From an uncultured Bifidobacteriaceae bacterium (GTDB lineage Bacteria > Actinomycetota > Actinomycetes > S36-B12): a stretch of 64,000 bases of DNA. The translations under genes and the position numbers were made by a program. Below are positions 1-21,242 of the stretch, piece by piece. Every line of letters begins with the position of its first letter. Position 1 is the first letter of the stretch. Below the pieces are notes generated by a model. It was given only the letters and a program-made list of their open reading frames with translations, was not told where the DNA came from and ran no database searches. The stretch lies in the NCBI GenBank assembly GCA_964597445.1, contig CAZQXO010000001.1:46978-110977 (forward strand), read 5' to 3'.

Positions 1-1
1 C

Positions 2-487
2 ATCGCCCCGCCGCGGCTCGATCACGTGCTCGTCACGGCCGAGGAGGTGGGTGACTCGGCGCAGTTCTACATGGATGTCTTCGGCTTCCGTCTCACCGAG
101 CAACTGGTCGACGGGGCCGGGCACCAGCTGGCCGTGTGGATGGAGACATCCCACCGCCCGCACGACCTCGCGATCGTGTCAGGGCCCAACGGTGGCCTGC
201 ATCACTTCGCGTGGTGGCTCGATGACTGGGACCATGTGCGCCGATCAGCCGACATCCTCGCCTACAACGGCATCCAGATCGATGTGGGTCCGACCCGGCA
301 TGGCATCACGCGTGGGAACACGATCTACTTCTTCGATCCGCTGGGCACCCGCAACGAGGTGTTCACGGGCGGATACCGACCGGATCCGGACTTCCCGACC
401 ATCACCTGGACCGAGGACAACATCGGTCGTGCCGTCTTCTACTACGAGGGTGAAGTGAACCAGCGCTTCATGACGGTGCACACGTGA
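2..487 (+). CDS. Extradiol ring-cleavage dioxygenase (catechol 2,3-dioxygenase type), C-terminal part; 5' end outside window
   Basis: The frame is open from nt 2 (IAPPRLDHVLVTAEEV...) to TGA 485-487, and ORF-track 26..487 is its in-frame remainder. VOC/extradiol motifs present: GLHHFAWW, GPTRHGITRGNTIYFFDP, NQRFMTVH. It aligns by eye along its whole length with residues ~150-303 of the next ORF. Confidence 0.85.
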   Translation: MAPPRLDHVLVTAEEVGDSAQFYMDVFGFRLTEQLVDGAGHQLAVWMETSHRPHDLAIVSGPNGGLHHFAWWLDDWDHVRRSADILAYNGIQIDVGPTRHGITRGNTIYFFDPLGTRNEVFTGGYRPDPDFPTITWTEDNIGRAVFYYEGEVNQRFMTVHT

Positions 488-1395
488 GCATCCTGCGACT
501 GTCCCATGTCGAGATCCGGGTTCCGGACCTCGAGCTCGCCACGGCCTACTACACCGAGGTCGTCGGAATGTACGAGACCGCACGCGAGCCTGATCGCGTC
601 TTCCTGAAGTGCTGGGACGAGCACCAGCATCACTCCCTCATCCTGACCTTCGCGCCGACCTACGGGCTGAACCACATGGGCTGGAAGGTGTCGGAGGCCT
701 CGGACCTCGATCACTACGCCGAGCGCCTCCGGGCGACGGGCGTCGACGTCGTGCGGTTCGCAGCGGGGGAGATCGGTCCGGGCCACGGAGAGGCGATTCG
801 CTTCACCATGCCGAGCGGGCATGTCATGGAGCTCGTCCACGGGATGGAGCAGGTCGGGAACCTGCTGCCGAACACCAATCCTCCGCCGAAGCCGCTCGGT
901 CTCGTGGGATTCGCTCCACCGCGTCTCGACCACATTTTCCTCACGTGTGAGGACGTTGCGGGGAACACGCGCTTTCTGACCGATGTCCTCGACTTCCACC
1001 TCACTGAGCAGGTCCTCGGCGACGATGGCTTCCAGATGGCGACGTGGCTGGAGCACTCCCATCACAGCCACGACATCGCGCTCGTCACCGGTCAGGATCG
1101 AGGGCTTCACCACTTCGCCTGGTGGGTCGACGACTGGAACCAGATCCGCGAGGTGGCCGATGTCCTGGCCTACCACGGCGTCCGCATCGAGACGAACCCC
1201 ACGCGGCACGGCGCGACCCGCGGGCACTGCATCTACTTCTTCGATCCGGCGGGCAACCGCAATGAGGCCTTCACGGGCGGGTACTGGGTCGATCCCGAGG
1301 AGCCACCCGTGACCTGGACGGAGGCCGAGATGGGGCGGGCGATCTTCTACTACGACGGCGTCGTGAACCAGCGGTTCCTGACGGTCCACAGCTGA
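484..1395 (+). CDS. Catechol 2,3-dioxygenase-like extradiol dioxygenase (two-domain VOC protein)
   Basis: 303-aa ORF with two VOC halves (LSHVEIRV...HMGWKV and LDHIFLT...LHHFAWW). The C-terminus GATRGHCIYFFDPAGNRNE...NQRFLTVHS is typical of catechol 2,3-dioxygenases. The GTG start overlaps the upstream stop (GTGA 484-487). Confidence 0.88.
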   Translation: MSILRLSHVEIRVPDLELATAYYTEVVGMYETAREPDRVFLKCWDEHQHHSLILTFAPTYGLNHMGWKVSEASDLDHYAERLRATGVDVVRFAAGEIGPGHGEAIRFTMPSGHVMELVHGMEQVGNLLPNTNPPPKPLGLVGFAPPRLDHIFLTCEDVAGNTRFLTDVLDFHLTEQVLGDDGFQMATWLEHSHHSHDIALVTGQDRGLHHFAWWVDDWNQIREVADVLAYHGVRIETNPTRHGATRGHCIYFFDPAGNRNEAFTGGYWVDPEEPPVTWTEAEMGRAIFYYDGVVNQRFLTVHS

Positions 1396-1403
1396 CGGAG
1401 GCG

Positions 1404-2522
1404 ATGATGACCACATCCGAGCTCCAGCCGCCACCGGCCCTGCCGCGCACCGAGCGACCTGATGCACCGGCCTACCTGCAGCGCTACCTCGATCGCGAGG
1501 GCCGCGGTGGCAAGCCGCATGAGGTGGTGGATCGGGGAGGCGATGGCGAGACGCCGCTGTACCTGAGGCGCTTCCGGGACCGTCGCAGCGGGGCCAATCC
1601 GCTCGAGGCGCCCGTTCCGGAGTGGGAGGGCGTCGATCTGGGCGTGACGCAGGCCCGTGCGCGCATCACGAAGACCAAGGAGATCGTGCCGGAGGACGCC
1701 GTCGCGGCAGGACCCTCCACGGTCACGCAGGTGCACATCATCCGTCACGGTGAGACGCAGGGGTACTCGACCGAGAGCGGACTCACCCCGCTGGGCAGCT
1801 GGCAGGCGCATCGTCGTGGGTTCGACATCAGCAAGGGTGTCCGGGAGGGCGAGCGGATCCGCATCGTGTGCGCGGAGACGAACCGGGCACGGCAGACCGC
1901 CGAGCACATCCGTCGCGGCCTGCTTGACGGGCTGACGATGTGGGGGCGCACGGCGGAGGTCTCCGAGATCGATGGCATGGAGGAGTTCCGGAACTTCCAG
2001 GTCTGGACTCCGGAGGGTCTGCGCGACGTCACAGGCGCCTTCCGGCTCTATCAGAAGGAGATGGAGAAGTACGAGCGAGTCGCCCACGGCGATCGCCCCC
2101 TGTGGCTCGTCGAGGTGGATCGGTTCTGGCGGACGCAGCAGGGCGGTGGGGATCCCATCACCTACTGGACGCAGATCCCGATGCTGTGCTTCGAGCCTCC
2201 GTCCGCAACCGTGCGTCGATTCTGGGCTGGGATCCGACGCATCCGCGAGGAGCATCCGGGTGACCGCATCATCGTGGCCACTCACTCAGGCCCGATCCGC
2301 GTGTTCGCCATGGCGGCTCACGGTTATGACCCGGGCGAGCCGTACAACACTGAAGAGGTCATCGTGAAGCTGCTGTCTGGAGACTCCGGGGCCTTCCTGG
2401 CCTACCGCAATCGGGTGTCCGAGGTTCAGGTGCCCACTCTCGACGAGCTTCCTGACTGGTGGGAGGGGCTCTCGGGAGAGGCGCTGCCACGATCCCGGCG
2501 GGAGCAGGAGGTGGGCTCATGA
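1404..2522 (+). CDS. Histidine phosphatase (phosphoglycerate-mutase-like) family protein with ~110-aa N-terminal extension
   Basis: 372-aa ORF with GGAGG just upstream of ATGATG. It has the catalytic RHG motif (VHIIRHGETQGY) and a distal His (VATHSGPIRVF). The first ~110 aa carry no motif I recognise. TGA 2520-2522 overlaps the next ATG. Confidence 0.75.
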   Translation: MMTTSELQPPPALPRTERPDAPAYLQRYLDREGRGGKPHEVVDRGGDGETPLYLRRFRDRRSGANPLEAPVPEWEGVDLGVTQARARITKTKEIVPEDAVAAGPSTVTQVHIIRHGETQGYSTESGLTPLGSWQAHRRGFDISKGVREGERIRIVCAETNRARQTAEHIRRGLLDGLTMWGRTAEVSEIDGMEEFRNFQVWTPEGLRDVTGAFRLYQKEMEKYERVAHGDRPLWLVEVDRFWRTQQGGGDPITYWTQIPMLCFEPPSATVRRFWAGIRRIREEHPGDRIIVATHSGPIRVFAMAAHGYDPGEPYNTEEVIVKLLSGDSGAFLAYRNRVSEVQVPTLDELPDWWEGLSGEALPRSRREQEVGS

Positions 2523-3598
2523 GCAGTCACATCATGTGGTTCGAGGGGTACTGGGAGGGCCTCAAGCCGGAGGTGGGGGGCAAGGCCGCAAGTCTGGGCG
2601 AGATGACGGGAGCCGGCCTGCCGGTTCCGCCGGGGTTCGCCCTCACCACTGCTGCCTACCGTGCCTCGCGAGACGCCTCCGACATCGATGCCACCCTGGC
2701 CCGGCTGCTCCATGGACTCGACACGAGCGACACCGACATGGTGTCGGACCGCTGTGGACGCATCCGACGGCACATCGCTGAGATGCCCATGGACCTGGAC
2801 GTCGAGGCGGACCTACGACAGGCCTACACCGAGCTGTGTCGCCGCAGCAGCACCGCGGATGTCCCCGTCGCCGTGCGATCGTCCGCCACGAGTGAGGACT
2901 CCCCGGATGCCTCCTTCGCCGGTGAGCACGACACGTACCTCTGGGTGCGAGGTTCGGACGCCGTCGTCGACGCCGTGCGCCGGTGCTGGGCCTCGCTCTT
3001 CACGGATCGCGCCACGTGCTACCGGGTCGAGATGGGCTACGAGCACCGTTCCGTGGAGATGAGCGTGGTCATCCAGAAGATGGTCCGCCCGGTCTCCGCG
3101 GGCGTCGCCTTCACGCTGAACCCCTCGGACGGGGATCGCTCGACGATCGCCATTGACGCGGCCTGGGGCTTCGGCGAGGGCGTGGTGTCCGGTGAGGTGA
3201 CTCCCGACAACTTCCTGGTCGACAAGGTGCTCTACGAGATCAGCCGACGGCGAGTGGCCACCAAGGAGGTCGAGTTCACGCTCAACGGAGGCGACAGCGT
3301 CGTCAAGGTACCCCTGGAGGGTGCCCGTGCCACCGACGCCTCCCTCACGGATGACCAGATCAAGGCCATCGCCAGGCTCGCCCGCACGGCCGAGCGGCAC
3401 TACGGGTGCCCCCAGGACGTCGAGTGGGCCGTCGACGCGGATCTGGCGGACGGCGAGAACATCGTGCTCCTGCAGTCGCGCCCGGAGACCGTGTGGAGCA
3501 AGAAGGCAGCCGAGAGGTCCGTGGCACCGGGGGGCACCGACATGATGGCGAGCATCGTGTCGACGCTCATGAATCCGCTCAACAGTCGCAAGTCCTAG
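2519..3598 (+). CDS. PPDK_N / ATP-grasp subunit of a split PEP-synthase-like phosphotransferase (PpsB-like)
   Basis: ORF-track gives 2459..3598; I prefer ATG 2519 (MSSHIMWFEG..., ATGA overlap with the upstream stop). Signatures present: GGKAASLGEM, VAVRSSATSEDSPDASFAGEHDTYL, VVIQKMV, GVAFTLNP, GFGEGVVSG, PQDVEWAV. The protein ends after the ATP-grasp domain, with no swivel-His and no TIM barrel. Confidence 0.8.
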   Translation: MSSHIMWFEGYWEGLKPEVGGKAASLGEMTGAGLPVPPGFALTTAAYRASRDASDIDATLARLLHGLDTSDTDMVSDRCGRIRRHIAEMPMDLDVEADLRQAYTELCRRSSTADVPVAVRSSATSEDSPDASFAGEHDTYLWVRGSDAVVDAVRRCWASLFTDRATCYRVEMGYEHRSVEMSVVIQKMVRPVSAGVAFTLNPSDGDRSTIAIDAAWGFGEGVVSGEVTPDNFLVDKVLYEISRRRVATKEVEFTLNGGDSVVKVPLEGARATDASLTDDQIKAIARLARTAERHYGCPQDVEWAVDADLADGENIVLLQSRPETVWSKKAAERSVAPGGTDMMASIVSTLMNPLNSRKS

Positions 3599-3650
3599 CA
3601 GCACGACCAGTTCCGTCCATCACCCGCAGCAGTCAAGAGAGGGAGTTCGC

Positions 3651-5459
3651 ATGGCAGATCGGTTCCCCAGCCCCTTTGAGATTCCGGCGCCTGCGGGTGC
3701 CGAGGGGTGGCAGCAGCTCTACACCTACTCGTCGCTGTTCTCCGAGGGTCGCCGTGCCTACGAGGACTCCATGTTCTGGTTCCAGGACGGCGTCCACTGG
3801 CCGACGGCCCTGCGTCCGTGGGATGCCACGCTCTTCGAGTACGCAATCACATCCCTGTCGCAGTACAACACCCGGCACCTGCAGGTGCCCCCGGCCAACG
3901 GGATCGACTTCCGGATCCTGAACGGGTACGTGTACCTCACGCCGGTGCCGGCTCCCGAGGCCGACATCGAGGGTCGAGTGGCCAACTTCATGGATCGCGC
4001 CGGGTTCTACTTCATGAACTGGAACGACCTGTACGACAAGTGGATGATCAAGATCCGGGATCTCGTCAAGGAACTCGAGACCATCGACTTCGACCCGCTC
4101 CCGGAGCTGGAGGATGCCGACGACGTCGTGAAGTCCGGCGCGGGCCTGGGGTCGGGCTGGAAGATCCAGGCGGACTACCACAAGCTGCTGGACCTGGCAC
4201 TCAAGCTCTGGCAGTACCACTTCGAGTTCCTGAACCTCGGCTATGCCGCCTACCTCGACTTCTTCGGCTTCTGCAAGCAGGCCTGGCCGAACATCCCGGA
4301 CCTCGCCATCGCGAAGATGGTGGCCGGCGTGGAAGTCGATCTCTTCCGTCCGGATGAGGAGCTGAAGCGGCTCGCGCGCATGGCCGTGGACTCAGGCGTG
4401 GCCGAGGCGTTCGCCACCGGGGATGTTGAGGCGACGTGCCAGATCCTCAAGGGAAGCGATGCCGGCAATGCGTGGATCGCCTCCTTCCAGGAGTCGGCTG
4501 AGCCGTGGTTCAACTTCTCCACCGGGTCGGGCTTCTACCACTCCGACAAGATCTGGATCGAGAACGTCGAGATCCCCTTCGAGTTCATCGGCAACTACAT
4601 CACCAAGCTCCAGAAGGGCGAGGACCTCGCACGTCCGATGGCCGCCATCCACGCGGAGCGCGATCGCATCGTCAGCGAGTACGCGGAGCTCCTTCCGACC
4701 GATGCGGATCGGGAGGCATTCCAGGGGAAGCTCGGCCTGGCGCGCGTGGTGTTCCCCTATGTCGAGAACCACAACTTCTATGTGGAGCACTGGAGCCACT
4801 CGGTCATCTGGCGCAAGATGCGCCAGCTGGGGGAGCTCTTCGTCAAGGAGGGCTTCTGGAGCGAGGCGAACGACATCTTCTTCCTCAAGCGGACCGAGGT
4901 CGAGGATGCCCTGTTCGACTACTTCCACTCGTGGGCCACGCCTGCGCCGGCAGCCGGTCCGAGCTACTGGCCCCAGGAGATCGAGCGGCGTCGCGCGATC
5001 CACTCGGCCCTGTCGGGCTGGAAGCCCACGCCCGCCATGGGCGTCCCGCCGGAGGTCATCACGGAGCCCTTCACGGTCATGCTCTGGGGGATCACGACCG
5101 AGAGTGTCGGTGCCTGGCTGGGCGGCGGCGCCGGAGAGGACGGCCAGCTCAAGGGCATGTCCGCCTCGCCGGGTGTCGTCGAGGGCCCTGCCCGGGTCAT
5201 CTTCAGCCCGGATCAGATCAGCGAGGTTCAGGAGGGCGAGATCCTCGTGGCCCCGCTGACGGCCCCGTCCTGGGCGCCGATCTTCGGCAAGATCCAGGCG
5301 ACGGTGACCGACACCGGCGGCATGATGAGCCACGCGGCCATCGTCTGTCGCGAGTACGGACTGCCGGCCGTGACCGGGACGGGATTCGCCACGTCGACGA
5401 TCAAGACCGGTGACCGGATCCGGGTCGACGGCTCCAACGGCGTGGTCACGGTCCTCTAG
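3651..5459 (+). CDS. Swivel phospho-His (PEP-utilising-enzyme mobile domain) protein with ~480-aa non-TIM N-terminal domain (PpsA-like / rifampicin-phosphotransferase-like acceptor subunit)
   Basis: 602-aa ORF with a GAGAGGGAG RBS. The C-terminal ~110 aa form the mobile domain (GVVEGPARVI, EGEILVAPLTAPSW, TDTGGMMSHAAIVCREYGLPAV) and the protein ends right after it. The N-terminal start FPSPFEIPAPAGAEGWQQLY...FWFQDGVHWP matches my unverified recollection of phenylphosphate synthase alpha-type proteins. Confidence 0.8.
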   Translation: MADRFPSPFEIPAPAGAEGWQQLYTYSSLFSEGRRAYEDSMFWFQDGVHWPTALRPWDATLFEYAITSLSQYNTRHLQVPPANGIDFRILNGYVYLTPVPAPEADIEGRVANFMDRAGFYFMNWNDLYDKWMIKIRDLVKELETIDFDPLPELEDADDVVKSGAGLGSGWKIQADYHKLLDLALKLWQYHFEFLNLGYAAYLDFFGFCKQAWPNIPDLAIAKMVAGVEVDLFRPDEELKRLARMAVDSGVAEAFATGDVEATCQILKGSDAGNAWIASFQESAEPWFNFSTGSGFYHSDKIWIENVEIPFEFIGNYITKLQKGEDLARPMAAIHAERDRIVSEYAELLPTDADREAFQGKLGLARVVFPYVENHNFYVEHWSHSVIWRKMRQLGELFVKEGFWSEANDIFFLKRTEVEDALFDYFHSWATPAPAAGPSYWPQEIERRRAIHSALSGWKPTPAMGVPPEVITEPFTVMLWGITTESVGAWLGGGAGEDGQLKGMSASPGVVEGPARVIFSPDQISEVQEGEILVAPLTAPSWAPIFGKIQATVTDTGGMMSHAAIVCREYGLPAVTGTGFATSTIKTGDRIRVDGSNGVVTVL

Positions 5460-5514
5460 GGGAGCCTCTCCGTAGAGTCCGATTCGGGACCATCGTCACA
5501 ACTTCACACGCGGT

Positions 5515-5552
5515 TCCGTCGGGCGGGACGCCACCGTTGCCCGCCCGACGGA
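5515..5552 (+). terminator. GC-rich hairpin downstream of the swivel-His gene (intrinsic-terminator-like, no U tract)
   Basis: CCGTCGGGCGGG (5516-5527) pairs perfectly with CCCGCCCGACGG (5540-5551), giving a 12-nt loop. A flanking T/A pair extends the stem to 13 bp. It lies in the 138-nt gap between the stop at 5459 and the Rieske start at 5598. Confidence 0.45.
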
Positions 5553-5597
5553 GTCCGAGCACCCTTGGATTCACCACTTTCAGGGAAGGATCTGCGA

Positions 5598-6857
5598 ATG
5601 CTGACGGTCGAGCAGAACGAGGAGCTCACCCGGGTAGGTCCGGGCACGCCCATGGGGGAGCTGCTGCGCCGGTACTGGTACCCCATCGCCTTCGAGCAGG
5701 ACTTCGATACCGTCCCCACCAAGACGGTTCGACTGCTGGGCGAGAACTGGACGCTCTTCAAGACCCCGGTCTCGGGCCGCTACGGCATCGTGGCCGAGGC
5801 CTGTCCGCATCGCAGTGCATCCCTCACCTACGGGGTCGTCCATGAGGACGGAATCCGCTGCGGCTACCACGGCTGGAAGTGGGACTTCGACGGCACCTGC
5901 CTCGAGCAGCCTGCGGAGGCCGACAACCAGAACTTCCGCGACCGGGTGAGGCAGAAGGCGGGCAAGGCGCAGGCCATGGGTGGCATGGTCTGGGTGTACG
6001 TGGGCCCCGACCCGGCGCCCGAGCTGCCCCGCTTCGACGTGTTCGTCATGGACGGGATCAAGGACTGCGGGTACTCGACGCTGCCCTGCAATTGGCTCCA
6101 GATCATGGAGAACTCGGTGGATCCGCACCACGTGGAGTGGCTGCACGGCTACTACTTCGAGTTCCTTGGACAGACGCAGGGGTTCGACGCCCCCAAGGCC
6201 TTCCAGAAGAAGCACATGAGGACCGGCTTCGAGGAGATGGAGTGGGGCATCCTCAAGCGCCGCGTCCTCGAGGGGAGCACCGAGGAGAACGACGACTGGA
6301 AGATCGGCCACCCGTTGGTGTTCCCGTTCTACATGCGCGTCGGTGGCGCCGGTATCGACCAGATGCAGATCCGCGTGCCCATCGACGACACCACGACCTG
6401 GAAGCTCTTCTACTCCAACCATGCCCCGAAGGGCGGGGAGTGGGAGCCCCAGGACCGCCCGGTGTTCTACGAGTACCTCTGGAGGGATGAGCAGGGTCGC
6501 TTCATCACCGACTACATCGAGGGCCAGGACATCATGGCCTGGGTGTCGCAAGGGCCGGTGACCGACCGTACGCAGGAGCACCTCGGTCGTTCGGACGCGG
6601 GGGTGGCGATGCTGCGGAAGATGTTCAAGGAGAACATGAAGAGGGTCCAGGACGGCGAGGACCCGATCGGCACCGTCCGGGAGAAGCACGACATCATCCC
6701 CCTGCCATGTGAACGCGACAAGTTCGGCGCGGAGCGGGAGTTCGCGGCGGCCTTCATCACCATGGGTTCCATGCGCTACAGCCCCCAGAAGCAGGCACTC
6801 CTGGATCTCCACGACCAGGCGTGGGCACGTATCGAGAAGGCGGGGGCCCGTGCCTGA
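5598..6857 (+). CDS. Rieske [2Fe-2S] non-haem-iron oxygenase, alpha3 (phthalate/KshA/carbazole-type) catalytic subunit
   Basis: I moved the start to ATG 5598 (GGGAAGGA RBS ~8 nt upstream; ORF-track gives 5565). Rieske motif: CPHRSASL...CGYHGWKW. Mononuclear Fe motif: NWLQIMENSVDPHHVEWLH. No beta-subunit gene is adjacent. Confidence 0.88.
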   Translation: MLTVEQNEELTRVGPGTPMGELLRRYWYPIAFEQDFDTVPTKTVRLLGENWTLFKTPVSGRYGIVAEACPHRSASLTYGVVHEDGIRCGYHGWKWDFDGTCLEQPAEADNQNFRDRVRQKAGKAQAMGGMVWVYVGPDPAPELPRFDVFVMDGIKDCGYSTLPCNWLQIMENSVDPHHVEWLHGYYFEFLGQTQGFDAPKAFQKKHMRTGFEEMEWGILKRRVLEGSTEENDDWKIGHPLVFPFYMRVGGAGIDQMQIRVPIDDTTTWKLFYSNHAPKGGEWEPQDRPVFYEYLWRDEQGRFITDYIEGQDIMAWVSQGPVTDRTQEHLGRSDAGVAMLRKMFKENMKRVQDGEDPIGTVREKHDIIPLPCERDKFGAEREFAAAFITMGSMRYSPQKQALLDLHDQAWARIEKAGARA

Positions 6858-6858
6858 G

Positions 6859-7110
6859 GTGGGATTGCCCCCCGATCCGCATCGGCTTCCGCCCCCGGGA
6901 GCATGGTTCGCACGCGATGCCGAGCGGCACCTGCTGGATCGGCCCCGCTTCTGCCCGATGTGCGGCGAGGGGCTCGACGCCGATGGTGGCATCAGCACGG
7001 AGTACTGGTCCGGTGATGCTCGGTGCTTCATGACGTGGTGTGGCGCCTGCGGCTGGTTCGGGGAGGTCGTGCGGTTCGACATGGTCACGATCACCGAGGT
7101 GGAGCACTGA
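6859..7110 (+). CDS. Small Cys-rich protein with two CxxCG knuckles (zinc-ribbon or rubredoxin-like), family unknown
   Basis: This is the in-frame part of ORF-track 6709..7110. GTG 6859 lies 1 nt after the Rieske stop (TGA 6855-6857). The protein is 83 aa, with FCPMCGEG and WCGACGWFG about 25 residues apart and an aromatic-rich spacer. Coding status rests on position and frame only. Confidence 0.5.
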   Translation: MGLPPDPHRLPPPGAWFARDAERHLLDRPRFCPMCGEGLDADGGISTEYWSGDARCFMTWCGACGWFGEVVRFDMVTITEVEH

Positions 7111-7775
7111 GCCTGGGCGCCGGCACCGCACGTGCGGTCGTCTTCGATTTCGGTGGGCCGGTTCTGCTGACCCCGTTCGAACTCAGGCACGTGGGGGAGC
7201 GCGACCTCGGCCTCCCTGACGGAAGTCTCGCCTGGACCGGCCCCTTCGACCCGGGGTCGGACGCGGACTGGCGAGTGTTCCAGTCCGGTGGGATGACCGA
7301 GCGCGACTACTGGGCCCGCCGCGCGGAGGAGTTCCACGTGCTGACGGGGGAGCCCGCCACGATGCCCGCGCTGTGCTCCCATCTGTACTCCGGCACCGAG
7401 GAGGAACTGGTGCGCCCGGCCGCGCGGCGTCTCATGGAGGATGCCCGAGCTGCCGGGATGCCGGTGGGCGCGCTCACGAATGACCTCACGGCGTTCCACG
7501 ACCGGGAATGGATCGACAGGATGCGCATCCTCGGGGAGTTCGACGTGCTCGTCGACGGACGCACCGAAGGCGTGATGAAGCCGGATCCCGCGGCGTACCG
7601 GCTCGTGCTGGACCGGCTCGGGGTGAGGGCCGAGGACACCGTCTTCATCGACGACCAGCCCATCAATCTGAGGGGGGCGGAGGTGGTGGGGCTCACACCT
7701 GTCCACTTGGACCCCACGGACCCCGCTCCAGGGTTTAGGTTGGCCAGGACATTACTTGGACTTCCACAGGAGTGA
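7023..7775 (+). CDS. HAD-superfamily hydrolase (subfamily IA, DxGG variant; probable phosphatase)
   Basis: Motif I variant AVVFDFGGPVL, motif II ALTND, motif IV VFIDDQ. The only canonical in-frame starts (ATG 7023, GTG 7035/7038) overlap the upstream ORF by 73-88 nt, while the conserved core begins ~7134. The start is therefore uncertain; CTG 7107 or 7113 is possible. Confidence 0.72.
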   Translation: MLHDVVWRLRLVRGGRAVRHGHDHRGGALSLGAGTARAVVFDFGGPVLLTPFELRHVGERDLGLPDGSLAWTGPFDPGSDADWRVFQSGGMTERDYWARRAEEFHVLTGEPATMPALCSHLYSGTEEELVRPAARRLMEDARAAGMPVGALTNDLTAFHDREWIDRMRILGEFDVLVDGRTEGVMKPDPAAYRLVLDRLGVRAEDTVFIDDQPINLRGAEVVGLTPVHLDPTDPAPGFRLARTLLGLPQE

Positions 7776-7778
7776 ATC

Positions 7779-9122
7779 ATGCGCGTCGCCGTCGTCGGTT
7801 CCGGTCCCTCTGGCATCTACGCGGCGGACGCCCTGGTCTCGCAGGAGGAGGTGCCCGTCGAGGTGGACATCCTCGACCGGCTCCCCGTGCCCTTCGGCCT
7901 GGTTCGCTACGGGGTCGCGCCCGACCACCTCAGCATCCGCTCGGTGCGGGACACCCTGAACAAGGTGCTCCAGAAGCCGGGGGTCCGCTTCCTCGGCAAC
8001 GTCACGGTGGGGGCGGATGTGTCCGCCGCCGATCTCCTGCGCTTCTACGACGCCGTGATCCTGACCTACGGCGCGTCGAGCGACCGTCGCCTCGGCATCC
8101 CCGGGGAGGACCTCGACGGCAGTGTCGCCGCCACGGACTTCGTCGCCTGGTACTGCGGCCATCCTGACGCCGATCGCGCTCGGTTCGAGCGGCTGATTCC
8201 CTCGGCGAGATCGGCCGTGGTCGTCGGGGTCGGCAACGTCGCGATCGATGTGACCCGGGTGCTGGGCAAGACCGTGGGGGAGCTCGATCACACGGACATG
8301 CCCCAGCACGTGCTCGACACCCTGGCCTCCTCGGGCATCACGGATGTGTACCTGCTCGGTCGACGTGGCCCAGCGCAGGCGACCTTCACGACCAAGGAGC
8401 TCAAGGAGCTGGGGGAGCTGCTCGAGGCTGACGTCATCGTCGATCCGGCGGATGTGCTCCTCGATGAGGGCAGTGCCGCGGCGGCTGCGGCCGATCGCAC
8501 CATCGCCCGCAATGTGGATGTCGTGACCGAGTGGTCCCAGCGCACCCCCGAGGGCAAGCCCCGGCGGATCCACGTGCGCTTCCTGTCCCGTCCGATCGAG
8601 TTGCGGGGCGACGGCCGGGTGAGTTCCGTCCTCGTCGAGCGCACGTGCCTGACGCCGGACGGCGGCGTCGAGGGCACAGGCGTGACGGAGGAAATCGCGG
8701 CCGACCTCGTCGTCCGCTCGGTCGGATACCGCGGCATCCAGCTCGACGGCCTGCCGTTCGATGAGCGTGGGAACGTCGTTCCCCACGTCGACGGCCGGGT
8801 GACGACCGAGGGTGCACCCGTGCCCGGGTTCTACGTCGCCGGGTGGATCAAGCGGGGCCCCACGGGGATCATCGGTACCAACAAGAAGGACGCGGTCGCC
8901 ACGGTGACCTCGCTCCTCGAGGACCACGCGGCCGGGCGGGTACCGGAGGCAGGGGAGCCGGGAGGTCTGCCCGACTACCTTGCGGCGCGGGGAGTCGACG
9001 TCGTCGAGACGTCGGGGTGGGATGCCATCGACGCTGCGGAGCGTGCCCTGGGAGCCAGCCGTGGACGCGACCGGACGACGATCCACGACCGAGACGACCT
9101 GCTCGCGGCCTCGCGCGGCTAG
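7779..9122 (+). CDS. fprA: FprA-type (adrenodoxin-reductase-like) NADPH:ferredoxin reductase
   Basis: 447 aa with an ACAGGAG RBS. Motifs: MRVAVVGSGPSGIYAA (FAD GxGxxG), LVRYGVAPDH, second dinucleotide fold VVVGVGNVAIDV, and GWIKRGPTGIIGTNK near the C-terminus. Confidence 0.87.
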   Translation: MRVAVVGSGPSGIYAADALVSQEEVPVEVDILDRLPVPFGLVRYGVAPDHLSIRSVRDTLNKVLQKPGVRFLGNVTVGADVSAADLLRFYDAVILTYGASSDRRLGIPGEDLDGSVAATDFVAWYCGHPDADRARFERLIPSARSAVVVGVGNVAIDVTRVLGKTVGELDHTDMPQHVLDTLASSGITDVYLLGRRGPAQATFTTKELKELGELLEADVIVDPADVLLDEGSAAAAAADRTIARNVDVVTEWSQRTPEGKPRRIHVRFLSRPIELRGDGRVSSVLVERTCLTPDGGVEGTGVTEEIAADLVVRSVGYRGIQLDGLPFDERGNVVPHVDGRVTTEGAPVPGFYVAGWIKRGPTGIIGTNKKDAVATVTSLLEDHAAGRVPEAGEPGGLPDYLAARGVDVVETSGWDAIDAAERALGASRGRDRTTIHDRDDLLAASRG

Positions 9123-10093
9123 AACCAGCGCGGCCCGGTCTGCAGGGGCGCAACCTCCCACTCGCGCAGGGGAACGAGATCACCCCCGCAGGACTCGCGC
9201 CGCTCGGCCGCGTGCTGGACGCGCCGAACGCGGGTATGCCAGGCGCGACCGTCGGCGTGCCGCAGCTCGAGTTCGACATCGTCCTGAGCCGGGACCCAGT
9301 CCTGCCCGACGGGCATGGGCCGCTCCGGGGTGCGCACGAGCACGTCGACCGAGGACGCTCCCTTCTCGGAGATGGCCTGCCGGAGGGCGACGTCAGCTGC
9401 CTGGAGCGGTGCGGGCAACGAGGTCCGGCCGCGCAGGTGGGTCGGCAGCACCTCATGGCGGGCGATCGCTCCACGCAGCTCTCCCGCCTCCTCCGGCCTC
9501 ACCCGACCGTGGACCGCGCCGCTGGGCAGGGCGAGCGTCACCGGTGCCAGGCGATGTCCGCCGATGTGCGAGCACTCCCAGATCTCCGGGGAGATGGTCT
9601 CCGGGGAGGTCGTCTCCGGTGCCGTGATCTCGAGAGCGGAGATGAGGGCGCGTCCATCCCGGGCGCAGCACGCGTCCCGGCGCCCCTGCGTGCAGATGAG
9701 GAGGACAGGCCGGTCATCGACATGGCCGATGGGCGGGAGGCTGCCCTGGGCGACCCGGTCGGGGTCCCAACGGGAGAGGCAGGCCAGGTCCAGGGCCTCG
9801 GCACGCCGCAGCAGCATGCCTCCGGAAGCCGTGCGGGCGATCAGCACCGTCGGGGCGGAGGCTGGCGGCTGCTCCTCACGCCGTCCGGGGCGGCGGGCGA
9901 GGAGGACACCCACACCGGCCGCGGCCAGTCGCTGGAGGGACGCGCGCACGCCGGCGTCGAGCTCCGCATCCTCGAGTGCGACGCGGCCCCAAGGGCCCGG
10001 ATGCTCGACGACCAGCCAGGTGAGCGCGGTGGGTGCTGTTCCACCGAGGCGCTCGCCCACGTTCGCCGACGACTCCGAGCAGGTCAGCGTCAC
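9119..10093 (-). CDS. Sucrase/ferredoxin-like (thioredoxin-like Fe-S) family protein
   Basis: 324 aa. GTG 10093 overlaps the parC stop (GTGA). [17 protein letters not shown] and [12 protein letters not shown] match my recollection of the family. Its stop overlaps the fprA stop on the opposite strand (CTAG 9119-9122). Confidence 0.65.
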
Positions 10094-12534
10094 AGGGTGC
10101 TGCCGATACCGTCGATGGGCGCCGACGCTGCCTGTCCTGTGCCGTCTCGCCGGTCATCCACCTCGGGCAGGGGTACGGGCACGCCGGAGGCACTGGCTGC
10201 GCGCGCGGGCGCACGGCCCGCCCACGCGAGCATGAGACGGTCCTCCCCGCTGCGGAACCGATGGCAGCGGACCCCGGAGGTACCCCGACCCTTGCGGGGA
10301 TAGGCCTCGAGCGCCGTCACCTTCACCGTTCCCGGCTCAGTGCCGGGGAGTGCCGAGTCAGCTCCAGCGACGGTCACGACCTCGGCTGGCGCTCCCGGGG
10401 GCACGACCGCGAAGGCGATCGCCCGGGAACCCGGCACCACGGAGATCCCGGCCATGCCACCCGCGGCCCGGCCCTGCGGGCGCACGGCCGACGCGGCGAG
10501 GCGCAGCAGCTGGGCGTCTGAGGTCAGGAACACGAGGTCCGCTCCCTCGGCCGCCGCCTCGGGAAGGGCGCCCGCGCCCACCACCTCGTCGCCGTCCTCC
10601 AGTCGGATAATCTCCCACGTCGCCTTGTTCTGGGGTGCATCCGGCACCACGCGCTTCACGACCCCGGCCGCCGTCCCGAGGGCGATCCCCTCCTCATCCG
10701 AGAGTCCGACGAGGGCGAGGGGGCGTTCGCCGGCGGGGAGATCGAGGAAGGCTCCGAGGGGCGCACCCGCGGACAGCACCGGGCCGCCGGCACGTGGGGG
10801 CACGCCGGGAAGGTCGAGCACGTGCAGCCTGTGCACGCGCCCCATCGACGTGACGAGACCGATGTCGCTTCGGGTGGTCGTGGCCACGGCGGACGTGATC
10901 ACGTCATGGGTGGACCGATCGTGGGCGCTGACGGTGGACGCCTCAGGCACACTGCTCGTCCGGGCGAGGAGACCCGTGCTGGACAGAAGCACGATGCAGG
11001 GCTCATCGCCGACCTCGAGCGGCACGGCCGAGGCGACAGAGGACGTCCCCTCCATGAGCAGAGTCCGACGCGGGGTGGCATGCGTCTGGGCGGTCTGCGC
11101 GAGCTCGGCAGCGATGGTGGATCGGAGGACCCCAGGATCATCGAGGATGGTGGTGAGTTCGTCGATCGCACGGCGGAGGTCGTCCGACTCCGCCTCGAGT
11201 TCGATGCGGGAGAAGCGAGTGAGGCGGCGAAGCGGCATGTCGAGGATGTAGGTCGCCTGCACCTCGCTCAGGTCGAACACCGTGATGAGACGCTCACGTG
11301 CGGCACCGGCATCATCGGACTCACGGATGAGTTGGATGACCTCGTCGATGTCGAGGATCGCCGTGAGGAGTCCCTCGACGAGATGAAGCCTCTCCTCGGC
11401 CCTGCGGCGTCGGAATGCACTTCGACGAAGCACGACATCCCGGCGATGGTCGAGCCACACCCGAAGCATGTCGATGAGGCCGAGTGTCTGGGGCTGTCCG
11501 TTGACCAGCGCCACCGCATTGATGTTGACGGTGTCCTCCATGGGCGTCAGCTTGAAGAGCTGCTCCAGCACTGCCTCCGGATGGAATCCGTTCTTGATCT
11601 CGATCACGAGCCGAAGTCCGGAGTCACCGTCGGTGAGGTCGACGACATCGGCGATCCCCTGGAGCTTCTTGGACTGGACGGCATCCTTGATGCGATCGAT
11701 GACGCGTTCGGGGCCGATGTTCAGGGGGAGCTCGGTGACGACGATGCCCTGACGCCTGGGGCTGACCTGCTCCACGCGTGTGCGAGCGCGTACCCGGAAG
11801 CTACCCCGACCGGTCTCATAGGCCTCGCGAATGCCGTCGAGCCCGATGATGACACCACCGGAGGGGAGGTCCGGGCCCGGGACGAAGGACATCAGGTCGG
11901 CCAGGGTGGCGTCTGGATTGTCGAGCAGGTGCCGCGCGGCATGGATGACCTCGGCGAGATTGTGCGGCACCAAGGTCGTGGCCATGCCCACGGCGATGCC
12001 GGACGCTCCGTTGACGAGCAGGTTCGGCACCGCGGAGGGGAGAACCTCGGGCTCAGTCTCCCTGCCGTCGTAGTTCGGAACGAAGTCGACGACGTCCTCG
12101 TCGAGGCTCGAGGTCATCTCGAGAGCGACAGCAGCGAGCCGGGCCTCGGTGTACCGCATGGCCGCTGGACCGTCGTCGAGACTGCCGAAGTTCCCGTGGC
12201 CGTCGACCATGGGCAGCCGCAGCGTGAAGGGCTGGGCCATGCGCACGAGGGCGTCGTAGATGGCGCTGTCGCCGTGCGGGTGCAGTCGACCCATCACCTC
12301 GCCCACGACGCGCGCGCTCTTCACGTGTCCGCGATCCGGCCTGAGGCCCATCTGCGCCATCTGGAACAGGATCCTGCGCTGGACCGGCTTGAGGCCATCG
12401 CGGGCATCGGGAAGGGCACGGGAGTAGATGACCGAGTACGCGTACTCGAGGAAGGACCCCCGCATCTCGGTCTCGACGTCCACATCCACGATGCGGCCGT
12501 GCTCCACGGGCTTGGGGGCCGATCGGCGTGCCAT
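10090..12534 (-). CDS. parC: DNA topoisomerase IV subunit A (type IIA topoisomerase A subunit)
   Basis: 814 aa. The N-terminus [37 protein letters not shown], together with [19 protein letters not shown] and the active-site region [10 protein letters not shown], is the actinobacterial ParC-type pattern rather than GyrA, as far as I can judge by eye. Confidence 0.85.
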
Positions 12535-12592: not shown

Positions 12593-13474
12593 TCAGGGGT
12601 GCAGGGGACTGGCTCCGACACGGCTGACGCAGCGGCTGGCTGTCCTCTGGCCCGACTCAAGGCTGCTGCGGAGCCCGGCGCCGTCCAGCCATGCCGGGAG
12701 AAATCCGGCCGCGAAGGCATCGCCGGCTCCCGTGGTGTCGGCGCACGGGACGACGAGGGCCGGAACGTGGACGGTGTCGTGCGCATCAGCGGCGATGACT
12801 CCGTGCGCGCCCCTCTTGATGATCACGACGGGTGCACACCTGCGCAGTTCTTCCAGCGCTGCCTCTGCCGTGGCCTGGCCGCTTAGCACGAGCGCCTCAT
12901 CCTCGTTGGAGAGGAGAACGTCGATGCCCGGCAGGAGGTCCTGGACGAGCGCACGCTGCCGGGCCAAGGGATGGGCGGATGCGGGGTCCAGACTGACGGT
13001 CGCACCCCGGCTGCGGGCCTCCACGCAGGCCTTGATCGCTGTCGCCTGCGTCACGGGATTGAGCAGCGTGTAGCCGGACATATGCAGGTGTGTGTCCGAG
13101 GTCAGGTGAGGCAGGATGTCGGCCAGCGTGAGCTCGCTGTTCGCCCCAGGATCGGGAAGCATCGTGCGCTCGCGATCCCGGTCCACGATGACGATGCAGG
13201 TACCCGTGGCTTGGGAGCCCTCGCGAACGGCGAGCCGGACTCCCGCCTCCTGGAGCTGTCGCCTCAGGGCCTGTCCGAAGGGATCGGATCCGATGCACGC
13301 GACCAAGGTCACCTCGTGACCCTCGACCGCCATCCACGAGGCGGTGTTCGCAGCGGCGCCACCCGGGACGAGAGAGATGCTCGCCGGGGTGTCACTGGCG
13401 TAGACGATGTCGGTGTCGATCACAGCACTGACATCCATCATCACGTCCCCGACGATGACGCAGTGTCGCCTCAC
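12593..13474 (-). CDS. PfkB-family carbohydrate kinase, probable pseudouridine kinase
   Basis: 293 aa. It has the PfkB C-terminal motif DTTGAGDAFAAGFL. The GTG start overlaps the psuG stop (GTGA 13471-13474). Confidence 0.7.
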   Translation of the reverse strand: MRRHCVIVGDVMMDVSAVIDTDIVYASDTPASISLVPGGAAANTASWMAVEGHEVTLVACIGSDPFGQALRRQLQEAGVRLAVREGSQATGTCIVIVDRDRERTMLPDPGANSELTLADILPHLTSDTHLHMSGYTLLNPVTQATAIKACVEARSRGATVSLDPASAHPLARQRALVQDLLPGIDVLLSNEDEALVLSGQATAEAALEELRRCAPVVIIKRGAHGVIAADAHDTVHVPALVVPCADTTGAGDAFAAGFLPAWLDGAGLRSSLESGQRTASRCVSRVGASPLHP

Positions 13475-14415
13475 GCCTGCGTGCTCTCCAGAGATGCGTG
13501 ACGAACGGCGATGTGAGCGGCCAACTCCGAGTTGCGCAGGATGATGCGCTCGTTGACCACGAGGCTTGCGCCATGTGTCGCGCGATGGAAGTGGTCGAGG
13601 AGGAAGGGGGTCACGTCCTTGCCCGCAACGTTTCGGGCGGACGCCATCGTGAGTCCCTCGTCCAGAACCGCATGGTGGATGTCGGGATCCAGCTGCTCTG
13701 CCTCCGGAAGGGGATTCGCCACGACGAGTGCCGATCGGACGGCGAGTGACTGACGGGCCTGCATGATCTGCGCGACCTGGTCGGCGGTGTCGACGGTCCA
13801 GTCGACGGCGTAGCCCGAGTCCGAGAGATAGAACCCGGGAAACCGGGATGTCGCGAAGCCCACGATGGCGACGTTCAGCGTCTCGAGACGCTCGAGCGTC
13901 GCTTGCACGTCGAGAATCGACTTGACACCGGAGCAGACGACGGTGACCGGCGTCTCCGACAGGGCTGTGAGGTCGGCTGATTCATCCCAGCTGTCTCGCG
14001 CCTGACGATGGACGCCACCGAGCCCGCCGGTGGCGAAGACGGAGATGCCGAAGAGATGAGCGAGGTGGCTCGTCGCGGCCACGGTCGTGGCTCCGCTGCC
14101 CGATCGGGCGACGAGACTCGCGAGGTCCCGGGTTGTGACCTTCACGATGTCGTCGCGATCGGCGACCTGCTCGAGACCGGACTGATCGAGGCCGATCCGG
14201 ATGACCCCGTCGAGGACGGCGATCGTGGCGGGGGTCGCGCCGTGGGACCGAACCAGACGCTCGACCTCCGAGGCGACGCGCAGGTTCTCGGGTCGGGGAA
14301 GCCCGTGACTGATGATGGTCGACTCCAGGGCCACGACGGGGAGGCGTCCCCGGAGCGCCTCCTCCACCTCGGGAGAGACGGAGAACAGGCGCCGGTCGAG
14401 TCGATCCAGGTGCAT
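13471..14415 (-). CDS. psuG: Pseudouridine-5'-phosphate glycosidase
   Basis: 314 aa. Motifs: PVVALESTIISHGLPRPENL, ATTVAATSHLA, VFATGGLGGVHR. Confidence 0.88.
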   Translation of the reverse strand: MHLDRLDRRLFSVSPEVEEALRGRLPVVALESTIISHGLPRPENLRVASEVERLVRSHGATPATIAVLDGVIRIGLDQSGLEQVADRDDIVKVTTRDLASLVARSGSGATTVAATSHLAHLFGISVFATGGLGGVHRQARDSWDESADLTALSETPVTVVCSGVKSILDVQATLERLETLNVAIVGFATSRFPGFYLSDSGYAVDWTVDTADQVAQIMQARQSLAVRSALVVANPLPEAEQLDPDIHHAVLDEGLTMASARNVAGKDVTPFLLDHFHRATHGASLVVNERIILRNSELAAHIAVRHASLESTQA

Positions 14416-20802: not shown

Positions 20803-20945
20803 GGAGCCATCCTTCCCATCCAGCCCACCCGGGCGGGGAGGCCGAGGAGGACCACCCTGCCATGCCAGCGCCACGCGGATGAGGCACAATGCCCGCGCAC
20901 CCTGTGGTGCACATCGGAGCGGACACCGAACAGGAGCGAGGACAC

Positions 20946-21242
20946 ATGGCCACCGACTACGACGCACCTCGGAAGACGGATGAGGAGCTCGCGGAGGACA
21001 GCCTCGAGGAGTTGAAGGCGCGTCGGGCGGACAAGGCCTCATCCGCGGTGGATGTCGACGAGGCCGAGCTGGCCGAGACCCTCGAGCTGCCCGGGGCCGA
21101 CCTGTCGGACGAGAGCCTCACGGTCCGGGTGCTGCCCCGCCAGTCAGACGAGTTCACCTGCGTGAAGTGCTTCCTGGTGCAGCACCGCAGCCAACTCGAC
21201 CACGATGGCAAGGGCGGGCCGGTGTGCGTGGAGTGCGCATGA
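20946..21242 (+). CDS. Conserved small protein (recalled as DUF4193) with C-terminal Cys pairs
   Basis: ATG 20946 is preceded by CAGGAGCGAGGA. Sequence MATDYDAPRKTDEE..., acidic, with C-terminal FTCVKCFLV...GPVCVECA. Confidence 0.68.
   Translation: MATDYDAPRKTDEELAEDSLEELKARRADKASSAVDVDEAELAETLELPGADLSDESLTVRVLPRQSDEFTCVKCFLVQHRSQLDHDGKGGPVCVECA

Follow-up and report, generated by a model that had tools for sequence, protein, structure and literature searches.

A conserved Rieske oxygenase operon of environmental Actinomycetota as a putative phosphorylation-initiated route of phenol catabolism, with fprA as its probable backbone neighbour

Introduction

Two described actinobacterial pathways of aerobic phenol catabolism begin by phosphorylating their substrate, and they are the closest known counterparts of the operon analysed here, which encodes a Rieske non-haem-iron oxygenase behind a predicted phenol dikinase. 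The operon lies in a stretch of 64 kb (about 68% GC; the whole stretch is called the window below) from contig CAZQXO010000001.1 of an uncultured Bifidobacteriaceae bacterium (assembly GCA_964597445.1) and begins before window position 1. In the Cre system of Corynebacterium glutamicum, CreHI phosphorylates 4-cresol, the P450 system CreJEF, in which CreE is the ferredoxin reductase and CreF the ferredoxin, oxidises the aryl phosphate, and CreD dephosphorylates it (Du et al. 2016, as summarised in PMC12167813, PMC9549646 and PMC7764795). In Rhodococcus rhodochrous GD02, the Hpe system passes from HpeHI to the carboxylase HpeCBA, which acts on the phosphorylated substrate only, and on to the phosphatase HpeD (PMC9618137, PMC12167813), whose closest characterised homologue is NagD of E. 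coli (PMC9618137).

In the window, the Rieske gene is followed by a small Cys-rich open reading frame (ORF), a HAD phosphatase gene and a gene for an FprA-type NADPH-ferredoxin reductase, which a first-pass annotation had taken for the operon's own reductase. The known partners of FprA and adrenodoxin reductase are ferredoxins serving P450s, and the classical docking partner of phthalate-family oxygenases is a plant-type Fer2 domain. PDO_KF1, a phthalate dioxygenase of solved structure (7FJL/7FHR; PMC8649396), binds an anionic aromatic substrate. Our comparison of the locus with its relatives suggests, with moderate confidence, that the operon breaks down a phenolic compound along a "phosphorylate first" route and that FprA is the product of a neighbouring backbone gene.

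Results

The gene set and tight packing described for 5598-9122 by the first-pass annotation are present (Table 1), with 1 nt between the Rieske stop codon and the small ORF and 3 nt between the HAD stop codon and fprA. Synteny places the Rieske, small Cys4 and HAD genes (5598-7775) in the distal portion of a conserved operon that has about ten genes. Its common order, found in 80 genome loci and several metagenome contigs, is IclR regulator (minus strand), dioxygenase 1, dioxygenase 2, His_Phos, PPDK_N, PEP-utilizers, Rieske, small ORF and HAD, and the arrangement is not due to chance because the identical order recurs in dozens of genomes.

The upstream genes encode putative enzymes for both ends of a phosphorylation-initiated pathway. 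Dioxygenase 2 of the window and dioxygenase 1 of relative L001 (358.9 bits), whose counterpart in the window is truncated, both score above the NCBIfam cutoff for catechol 2,3-dioxygenase (TIGR03211, 320.2 bits). Among solved structures, the PPDK_N protein is matched best by HpeI (9GOJ, E 1.4e-78), which forms the ATP-grasp half of HpeHI, a two-component phenol dikinase (PMC12167813). The 602-aa dikinase subunit contains GGMMSHAAIV and scores 849.6 bits on NCBIfam PRK08296; its swivel histidine is preceded by serine, the Ser-His catalytic dipeptide described for CreH and PpsA (PMC12167813). Together the two proteins are predicted to have the layout of a two-component dikinase, namely an ATP-grasp subunit and a subunit with the substrate-binding and swivel-His parts. 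The phosphohydrolase that belongs to Pps/Cre/Hpe-type operons is represented by the HAD gene and by a His_Phos_1 gene, both of them conserved in the operon. The embedded phosphatase had earlier been read as a hint of a phosphorylated substrate or product, and a phosphorylated intermediate is indeed very likely, because a HpeHI/CreHI-type dikinase is encoded immediately upstream.

The Rieske oxygenase carries the [2Fe-2S] motif CPHRSASL...CGYHGW, in which C69, H71, C88 and H91 are invariant among 14 sequences, and matches the Pfam Rieske domain (E 8.4e-16). The same comparison finds D175, H177, H178 and H183 invariant in ENSVDPHHVEWLH, and a mononuclear iron site (2-His-1-carboxylate) is predicted in the C-terminal catalytic domain, where the protein matches LigXa_C, Ring_hydroxyl_A and, weakly, VanA_C. 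The closest solved structures are those of phthalate dioxygenase (7FJL/7FHR, E 4.5e-48), a similarity that is strong mainly over the N-terminal 190 residues, and no beta-subunit gene is present with the Rieske gene. Homologues number in the thousands; the best are 65-92% identical and come from Actinomycetota, including Nanopelagicales-like metagenome-assembled genomes (MAGs), Longivirga, Nocardioides, Micromonospora, Actinokineospora and Acidimicrobiia. Automated annotation names these homologues 5,5'-dehydrodivanillate O-demethylase; the protein of the window reaches no NCBIfam equivalog, and such labels are probably wrong for this family.

The identity of the adrenodoxin-reductase-like FprA is solid. 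It matches M. tuberculosis FprA (1LQT) at E 1.9e-106 over residues 3-443 and bovine adrenodoxin reductase (1CJC) at E 8.6e-77, both dinucleotide-binding motifs (GSGPSG and GVGNVA) are present, and its 447 aa include no extra or fused Fe-S domain. In loci L086-L092 the gene heads a conserved block in which it is followed by the opposite-strand Suc_Fer-like gene, ParC, PfkB and IndA, and what stands before it varies. Upstream of FprA, L086 (1-9350) has ParE, beta-carbonic anhydrase, PadR and PspC and no aromatic genes; L090 (1-7401) has only a tautomerase and two FAA_hydrolase genes; L087 (1-9362) has a tautomerase, FAA_hydrolases and the dikinase genes directly before FprA, without the Rieske, small-ORF and HAD genes; and L088, L091 and L092 have the full operon. 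The FprA of L086, a locus without the operon, is 73% identical to that of the window, compared with only 58-65% for many operon-adjacent FprAs. The FprAs with and without the operon are, by sequence and position, orthologues at one chromosomal site, and the interval from PspC or beta-carbonic anhydrase to FprA behaves as a variable slot for aromatic-catabolism cargo beside a constant FprA.

A survey of the neighbourhoods of orthologous Rieske genes covered 67 informative loci, i.e., those with enough downstream sequence. The reductase slot is taken by FprA in 38 of them and by a phthalate dioxygenase reductase (PDR)-type protein in 16, and the remaining 13 have neither and run into unrelated genes. 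The PDR-type protein (323 aa; NAD_binding_1 with a C-terminal Fer2 domain, PDR/VanB type) is encoded 0-126 nt 3' of the HAD gene in Nocardioides, Micromonospora, Actinokineospora and others, and is missing from the window as well as from the FprA-type and reductase-less loci. Several of the reductase-less loci have a Rieske protein 84-91% identical to that of the window. Wherever FprA stands beside the operon, the Suc_Fer-like and ParC genes come after it, and operons located elsewhere never carry it. In L044, 2.2 kb including minus-strand genes separate HAD from FprA; in L051, L057 and L058 insertions part FprA from Suc_Fer, and FprA remains with the operon. These comparisons argue for FprA as a conserved housekeeping gene of the chromosomal backbone rather than operon cargo, because the slot varies, FprA is tied to Suc_Fer and ParC, and the block exists without the Rieske module. 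The assignment of FprA as the operon's own reductase is therefore not upheld, since the block is kept without the Rieske, small and HAD genes in L086, L090 and L087 and FprA is absent when the operon lies elsewhere. Co-inheritance of reductase and oxygenase genes, as in a three-component system, was likewise not found, FprA keeping its site where the Rieske gene is missing.

Two further features of this site were observed. From L086 through L090 and L087 to the full operon, the contents of the slot look as if this single chromosomal site had gained or lost genes in steps. The beta-carbonic anhydrase gene lies 3' of FprA on the minus strand in some lineages (L044, L048, L049, L051, L055, L057-L060, L066-L069) and upstream on the plus strand in others (L086, L087, L090), a placement that indicates local inversions or rearrangements around fprA.

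The first-pass annotation had noted that the operon lacks a recognisable ferredoxin, and this extends to the whole window. A six-frame scan of the 64 kb for 4Fe-4S, 7Fe, plant-type, adrenodoxin-type, Rieske-type, rubredoxin and thioredoxin-like-ferredoxin (TLF) patterns returned only the Rieske oxygenase and one spurious match, and a scan of its likely coding ORFs for small Cys-rich proteins found, besides that of the operon, no ferredoxin-like ORF and one unrelated 117-aa protein. No homologue of the PDR-type reductase of L001 was found by tblastn against the whole window, and no classical reductase gene is present. In none of the loci is a ferredoxin encoded between FprA and Suc_Fer, where the inserts of relatives are beta-carbonic anhydrase or unrelated genes. 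A dedicated ferredoxin gene, as in three-component systems of classes II and III, is thus absent within the 64 kb. The 117-aa protein (20889-21242, plus strand), encoded far from the operon by the window's only other small Cys-rich ORF, is acidic and has a C-terminal CxxC...CxxC pair.

The 83-aa protein had been described as Cys-rich with two CxxCG knuckles. It is Cys-rich, with C32, C35, C61 and C64 invariant out of five cysteines (CPxC...WCxxC), but its second knuckle is WCxxC[GSRK]W, so that the CxxCG form is not conserved. An N-terminal motif, LPPDPHRLP..WF..DAERHLLDRP, is invariant too. The homologue search returned only 103 proteins, all of them short, operon-linked and hypothetical and none with a Pfam domain, and the protein itself has no match in Pfam or NCBIfam, rubredoxin (PF00301) included. 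Its AlphaFold2 model (predicted local distance difference test score 72.8 overall, 86-92 over the Cys region) contains a three-stranded sheet, and the best Foldseek matches in the PDB are the zinc ribbons Rpp21 and NrdR, which are non-significant (E>0.3). The gene always lies directly 3' of the Rieske gene, including in PDR-type operons and in L005, which has no HAD gene, and it is missing where the Rieske gene is missing (L087, L090). The protein is better described, from this distribution, as a putative Rieske-associated accessory than as a replacement ferredoxin, because operons that end in a PDR-type reductase have it just as well. Its earlier candidacy as a nearby electron carrier loses ground on the same count and through its zinc-ribbon-like model.

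The second nearby candidate for a carrier, the Suc_Fer-like protein, fared better in one part and worse in another. The motif CX8C...HX3H (HIGGH in the window) is kept in 34 of 34 orthologues. In Apd1 and Aim32, thioredoxin-like ferredoxins with a bis-His [2Fe-2S] cluster, this motif supplies the ligands (Stegmaier et al. 2019 as cited in PMC8482512), so that a putative [2Fe-2S] protein is credible. Its gene, on the other hand, is linked by its distribution to the backbone and not to the oxygenase, being present without the Rieske operon. The protein shares PF06999 and the motif with Apd1/Aim32 in all 34 orthologues, but differs in being a bacterial protein of 324 aa, encoded next to parC and fprA with or without the Rieske operon. 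In every genome examined the gene is convergent to fprA, with an overlap of 4 nt in the window, and lies directly upstream of parC in the same direction. FprA, a putative TLF ferredoxin and topoisomerase IV share a conserved neighbourhood here.

Transcription of fprA together with the operon is very probable here, because the HAD-fprA junction measures only 3-16 nt across about 25 genomes (4-16 nt in close relatives); the fprA Shine-Dalgarno sequence AGGAG is embedded in the final HAD codons. A promoter and terminator scan of 1-10200 gave no sigma-70-like site and one below-background terminator-like site, and such a scan is uninformative for an actinobacterium of 68% GC. The gap at 5460-5597 is the operon's sole sizeable intergenic gap (minimum free energy -58.4 kcal/mol, z = -2.5), and its hairpin has no T-tract. 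Lying between the kinase and oxygenase halves, this hairpin (5511-5557) could act in mRNA processing or stability, or as an attenuator.

The start of the HAD gene is uncertain. No ATG, GTG or TTG occurs between 7038 and the catalytic FDFGG motif, so that two starts come into question: GTG 7038, in which case 73 nt are shared with the small ORF, or a non-canonical CTG near 7107. In a public annotation of the identical sequence (L089) the gene begins 3' of the nucleophile Asp, which is probably wrong.

Table 1. Annotated features in and beside the operon, with window coordinates
Feature	Coordinates	Strand	Basis
Catechol 2,3-dioxygenase paralogue 1, 3' part, truncated by the window edge	1..487	+	tblastn, 83% identity to the first dioxygenase of L001
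Catechol 2,3-dioxygenase paralogue 2, 303 aa	484..1395	+	TIGR03211 catechol_2_3, 366.9 bits
Histidine-phosphatase-superfamily protein, 372 aa, N-terminal extension of ~95 aa	1404..2522	+	Pfam His_Phos_1, E 5.4e-14; position kept in operon
Putative ATP-grasp subunit of two-component phenol dikinase (HpeI/CreI/PpsB-like)	2459..3598	+	Pfam PPDK_N, E 1.1e-110; start may be later than 2459
Putative dikinase substrate-binding and swivel-His subunit (HpeH/CreH/PpsA-like), 602 aa	3651..5459	+	Pfam PEP-utilizers, residues 527-597; PRK08296
GC-rich hairpin in the 138-nt gap 5460-5597 between dikinase and Rieske genes	5511..5557	+	RNA folding, 14-bp stem
Rieske non-haem-iron oxygenase, alpha-only, phthalate-dioxygenase/LigXa-like, 419 aa	5598..6857	+	Pfam Rieske and LigXa_C
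Small Cys4 protein, 83 aa, zinc-ribbon-like, operon-specific	6859..7110 (GTG start)	+	103 homologues, no Pfam domain
HAD-superfamily phosphatase, motif I FDFGG, start uncertain	7107..7775	+	Pfam Hydrolase/HAD_2; TIGR02247 and HAD-IA family match
FprA-type NADPH-ferredoxin reductase, 447 aa	7779..9122 (ATG start)	+	1LQT match; AGGAG 6 nt upstream
Suc_Fer-like thioredoxin-like-ferredoxin protein, 324 aa	9119..10093	-	Pfam PF06999, E 9.7e-19; CX8C...HX3H
ParC/GyrA-like topoisomerase subunit A	10090-12534	-	Pfam
PfkB kinase	12593-13474	-	Pfam
Indigoidine_A-like (IndA)	13471-14415	-	Pfam

Other observations concern the operon in its relatives. The His_Phos_1 protein (1404-2522) begins with an extension of about 95 aa for which no family match was obtained; its gene keeps its place directly 5' of the dikinase genes, and the protein might be a phosphatase, a phosphomutase or a dikinase helper. 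In many relatives a further gene, for a product of about 250 aa, stands between the small ORF and HAD (L019, 11520-12275; equivalents in L025, L028, L031, L042, L049, L055, L062, L072, L088 and L091), and the window has none. This gene had been considered as a possible redox gene and was dropped, since its family is instead that of 2-oxopent-4-enoate hydratase / 4-oxalocrotonate decarboxylase, to which it is only distantly related (TIGR03220 E 2.4e-21, far under the cutoff; no Pfam match). The MAG contigs L031, L041, L043, L050, L054, L056 and L061 are titled "Bifidobacterium breve", "Rubrivirga sp.", "Actinomyces sp." or "Bifidobacteriaceae", which look like taxonomic mislabels or binning errors given their 80-90% identity to Nanopelagicales-like sequences.

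Discussion

The locus looks like a Rieske-based variant of phosphorylation-initiated phenol catabolism on the Cre/Hpe pattern, apparently not described before and widespread among environmental Actinomycetota, and the literature searched contained no paper on this operon or on a pathway combining a dikinase with a Rieske oxygenase. From the genes we infer the following substrate class and order of reactions. The HpeI-like ATP-grasp subunit and the HpeH/CreH-like swivel-His subunit would convert ArOH and ATP to aryl phosphate, AMP and Pi, and the phthalate-dioxygenase-like Rieske enzyme would oxidise the anionic aryl phosphate, a substrate that fits the binding of an anionic aromatic compound by phthalate dioxygenase. 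Most likely, the Rieske enzyme would either hydroxylate the ring, at the carbon that bears the phosphate or ortho to it, or O-demethylate an adjacent methoxy group. Removal of the phosphate by the HAD phosphatase, possibly together with the His-phosphatase, would then give a catechol, whose ring the two catechol 2,3-dioxygenases could open by meta-cleavage. In operons of the Nocardioides type the PDR-type reductase, judging from its position, would feed the Rieske enzyme, and in the clade of the window the oxygenase would be reduced by partners encoded outside the operon.

Like the Cre system, the operon encodes a putative two-subunit PpsAB-type phenol dikinase, a putative aryl-phosphate oxygenase that would draw on an NAD(P)H redox chain, and a phosphohydrolase, both systems being aerobic and actinobacterial. 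It differs in that the oxygenase is a Rieske non-haem-iron enzyme rather than a P450, in that the cre cluster encodes CreE and CreF whereas this operon encodes neither a ferredoxin reductase nor a ferredoxin, in that the product would go to extradiol ring cleavage instead of 4-hydroxybenzoate, and in that the phosphatase here is of the HAD superfamily. With the Hpe system the operon shares the frame of a kinase, a step on the phosphate ester and a phosphatase, and HpeI (9GOJ) is the closest solved relative of its ATP-grasp subunit; NagD, the homologue of HpeD, is a HAD-superfamily enzyme like the phosphatase of the operon. The middle step of Hpe, however, is a biotin-dependent carboxylase without redox partners, and its substrates are hydroxyphenylethanones. 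The two-component phthalate dioxygenase and PDR system (class IA) resembles the locus in its alpha-only oxygenase with a Rieske domain and a mononuclear iron site, and the operons of Nocardioides, Micromonospora and Actinokineospora add a PDR-like ferredoxin-NADP reductase with a C-terminal Fer2 domain. Unlike that system, the operon in the clade of the window lacks the PDR-type partner, and its context is a predicted phosphorylation pathway, not phthalate catabolism. The FprA of the window resembles M. tuberculosis FprA and adrenodoxin reductase over its full length and in both dinucleotide-binding motifs, but differs in being encoded by a probable backbone gene beside a topoisomerase gene.

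Several points weigh against this interpretation. The tight fprA junction persists over Rieske proteins of 75-92% identity, which could reflect selection for co-expression and a genuine recruitment of FprA. An ancestral unit of operon and FprA could have lost operon genes secondarily in L086, L087 and L090, although even so FprA was retained. The two phosphatases and the small protein are not explained by a simple four-step scheme, and an unlinked PDR-type reductase or ferredoxin in the FprA-type lineage is an assumption. As to the electron supply itself, an unlinked PDR-type reductase feeding the Rieske oxygenase is a serious possibility, if somewhat short of an even chance; the route from NADPH through co-transcribed FprA and an unlinked ferredoxin or the Suc_Fer-like protein to the Rieske centre is plausible and about equally likely; and some other route accounts for the remainder. 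Any role of FprA is thus one that we infer, and a route fed by FprA, if proven, would be new, no paper linking FprA-type reductases to Rieske oxygenases having been found in the literature searched.

A stronger version of that route holds that FprA displaced the PDR-type reductase as the entry point for NADPH, acting via an unlinked ferredoxin or the Suc_Fer-like bis-His [2Fe-2S] protein, which would give a type of three-component system not yet described for Rieske oxygenases. FprA does sit in the exact slot that the PDR-type reductase has in 16 other operons, with the 3-16 nt gap in about 25 genomes and its Shine-Dalgarno sequence inside the HAD gene; no alternative reductase or ferredoxin lies within the 64 kb, the Suc_Fer-like motif is kept in every orthologue, and FprA stays with the operon, not with Suc_Fer, in L051, L057 and L058. 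Displacement is nevertheless unlikely, for FprA and Suc_Fer are kept at their chromosomal position without a Rieske gene, FprA never accompanies the operon elsewhere, not even in the 13 reductase-less loci with their closely related Rieske proteins (84-91% identical in several), the 2.2 kb with minus-strand genes in L044 break the junction, the literature searched gives no link between FprA-type reductases and Rieske enzymes, and phthalate-family oxygenases classically dock a plant-type Fer2 domain. The full combination, an aryl-phosphate Rieske oxygenase that lost its PDR and is driven by co-transcribed FprA through the Suc_Fer-like protein or the Cys4 mini-protein, is improbable; if true, FprA with a non-classical carrier would make up a new class of electron-transfer chain for Rieske oxygenases within a new Rieske-based "phosphate-tagged phenol" pathway. 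Still less probable is the idea that the small protein is the missing carrier, a rubredoxin-like Fe(Cys)4 shuttle from FprA to the Rieske centre. Its four invariant cysteines in two knuckles, its strict company with the Rieske gene (missing with it in L087 and L090) and the lack of a known alternative function for its 103 homologues without a Pfam domain would suit such a shuttle, but it also occurs with a PDR-type reductase bearing its own [2Fe-2S] domain and therefore does not compensate for an absent ferredoxin, it matches no rubredoxin family in Pfam or NCBIfam, its second knuckle is not CPxCG, the CxxCG form being unconserved, and its model resembles, non-significantly, the zinc ribbons Rpp21 and NrdR and not rubredoxin. 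The Rieske enzyme might also be an ordinary LigXa/VanA-like enzyme that O-demethylates or hydroxylates an aromatic acid or phenol in its free form, with functionally unrelated neighbours, as the automated 5,5'-dehydrodivanillate O-demethylase labels and the Pfam matches to LigXa_C and, weakly, VanA_C would have it. This is hardly likely in view of the order dikinase, Rieske, small ORF and HAD in about 80 genomes, with Rieske identities of 65-92% and gaps of 1-3 nt, of the kinase-transformation-phosphatase logic proven experimentally in two precedents, and of the absence of any NCBIfam equivalog reached by the protein.

The case of fprA is a warning for annotation, as tight adjacency alone gave a backbone gene the appearance of an operon member. 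At the same time, the variable reductase slot, which may be PDR-type, FprA-adjacent or empty, is a natural experiment on the promiscuity of Rieske oxygenases toward their partners. If the phosphorylation-first reading is true, the operon could yield oxygenases for biocatalysis on phosphate-protected phenols, and Rieske oxygenation would be the third chemistry in phosphorylation-initiated aerobic phenol catabolism, after P450 oxidation in Cre and carboxylation in Hpe. On that reading, its wide occurrence among abundant Actinomycetota of fresh water and soil, such as Nanopelagicales-like MAGs, Longivirga, Nocardioides and Micromonospora, means that the operon could bear on the turnover of humic- or lignin-derived phenols.

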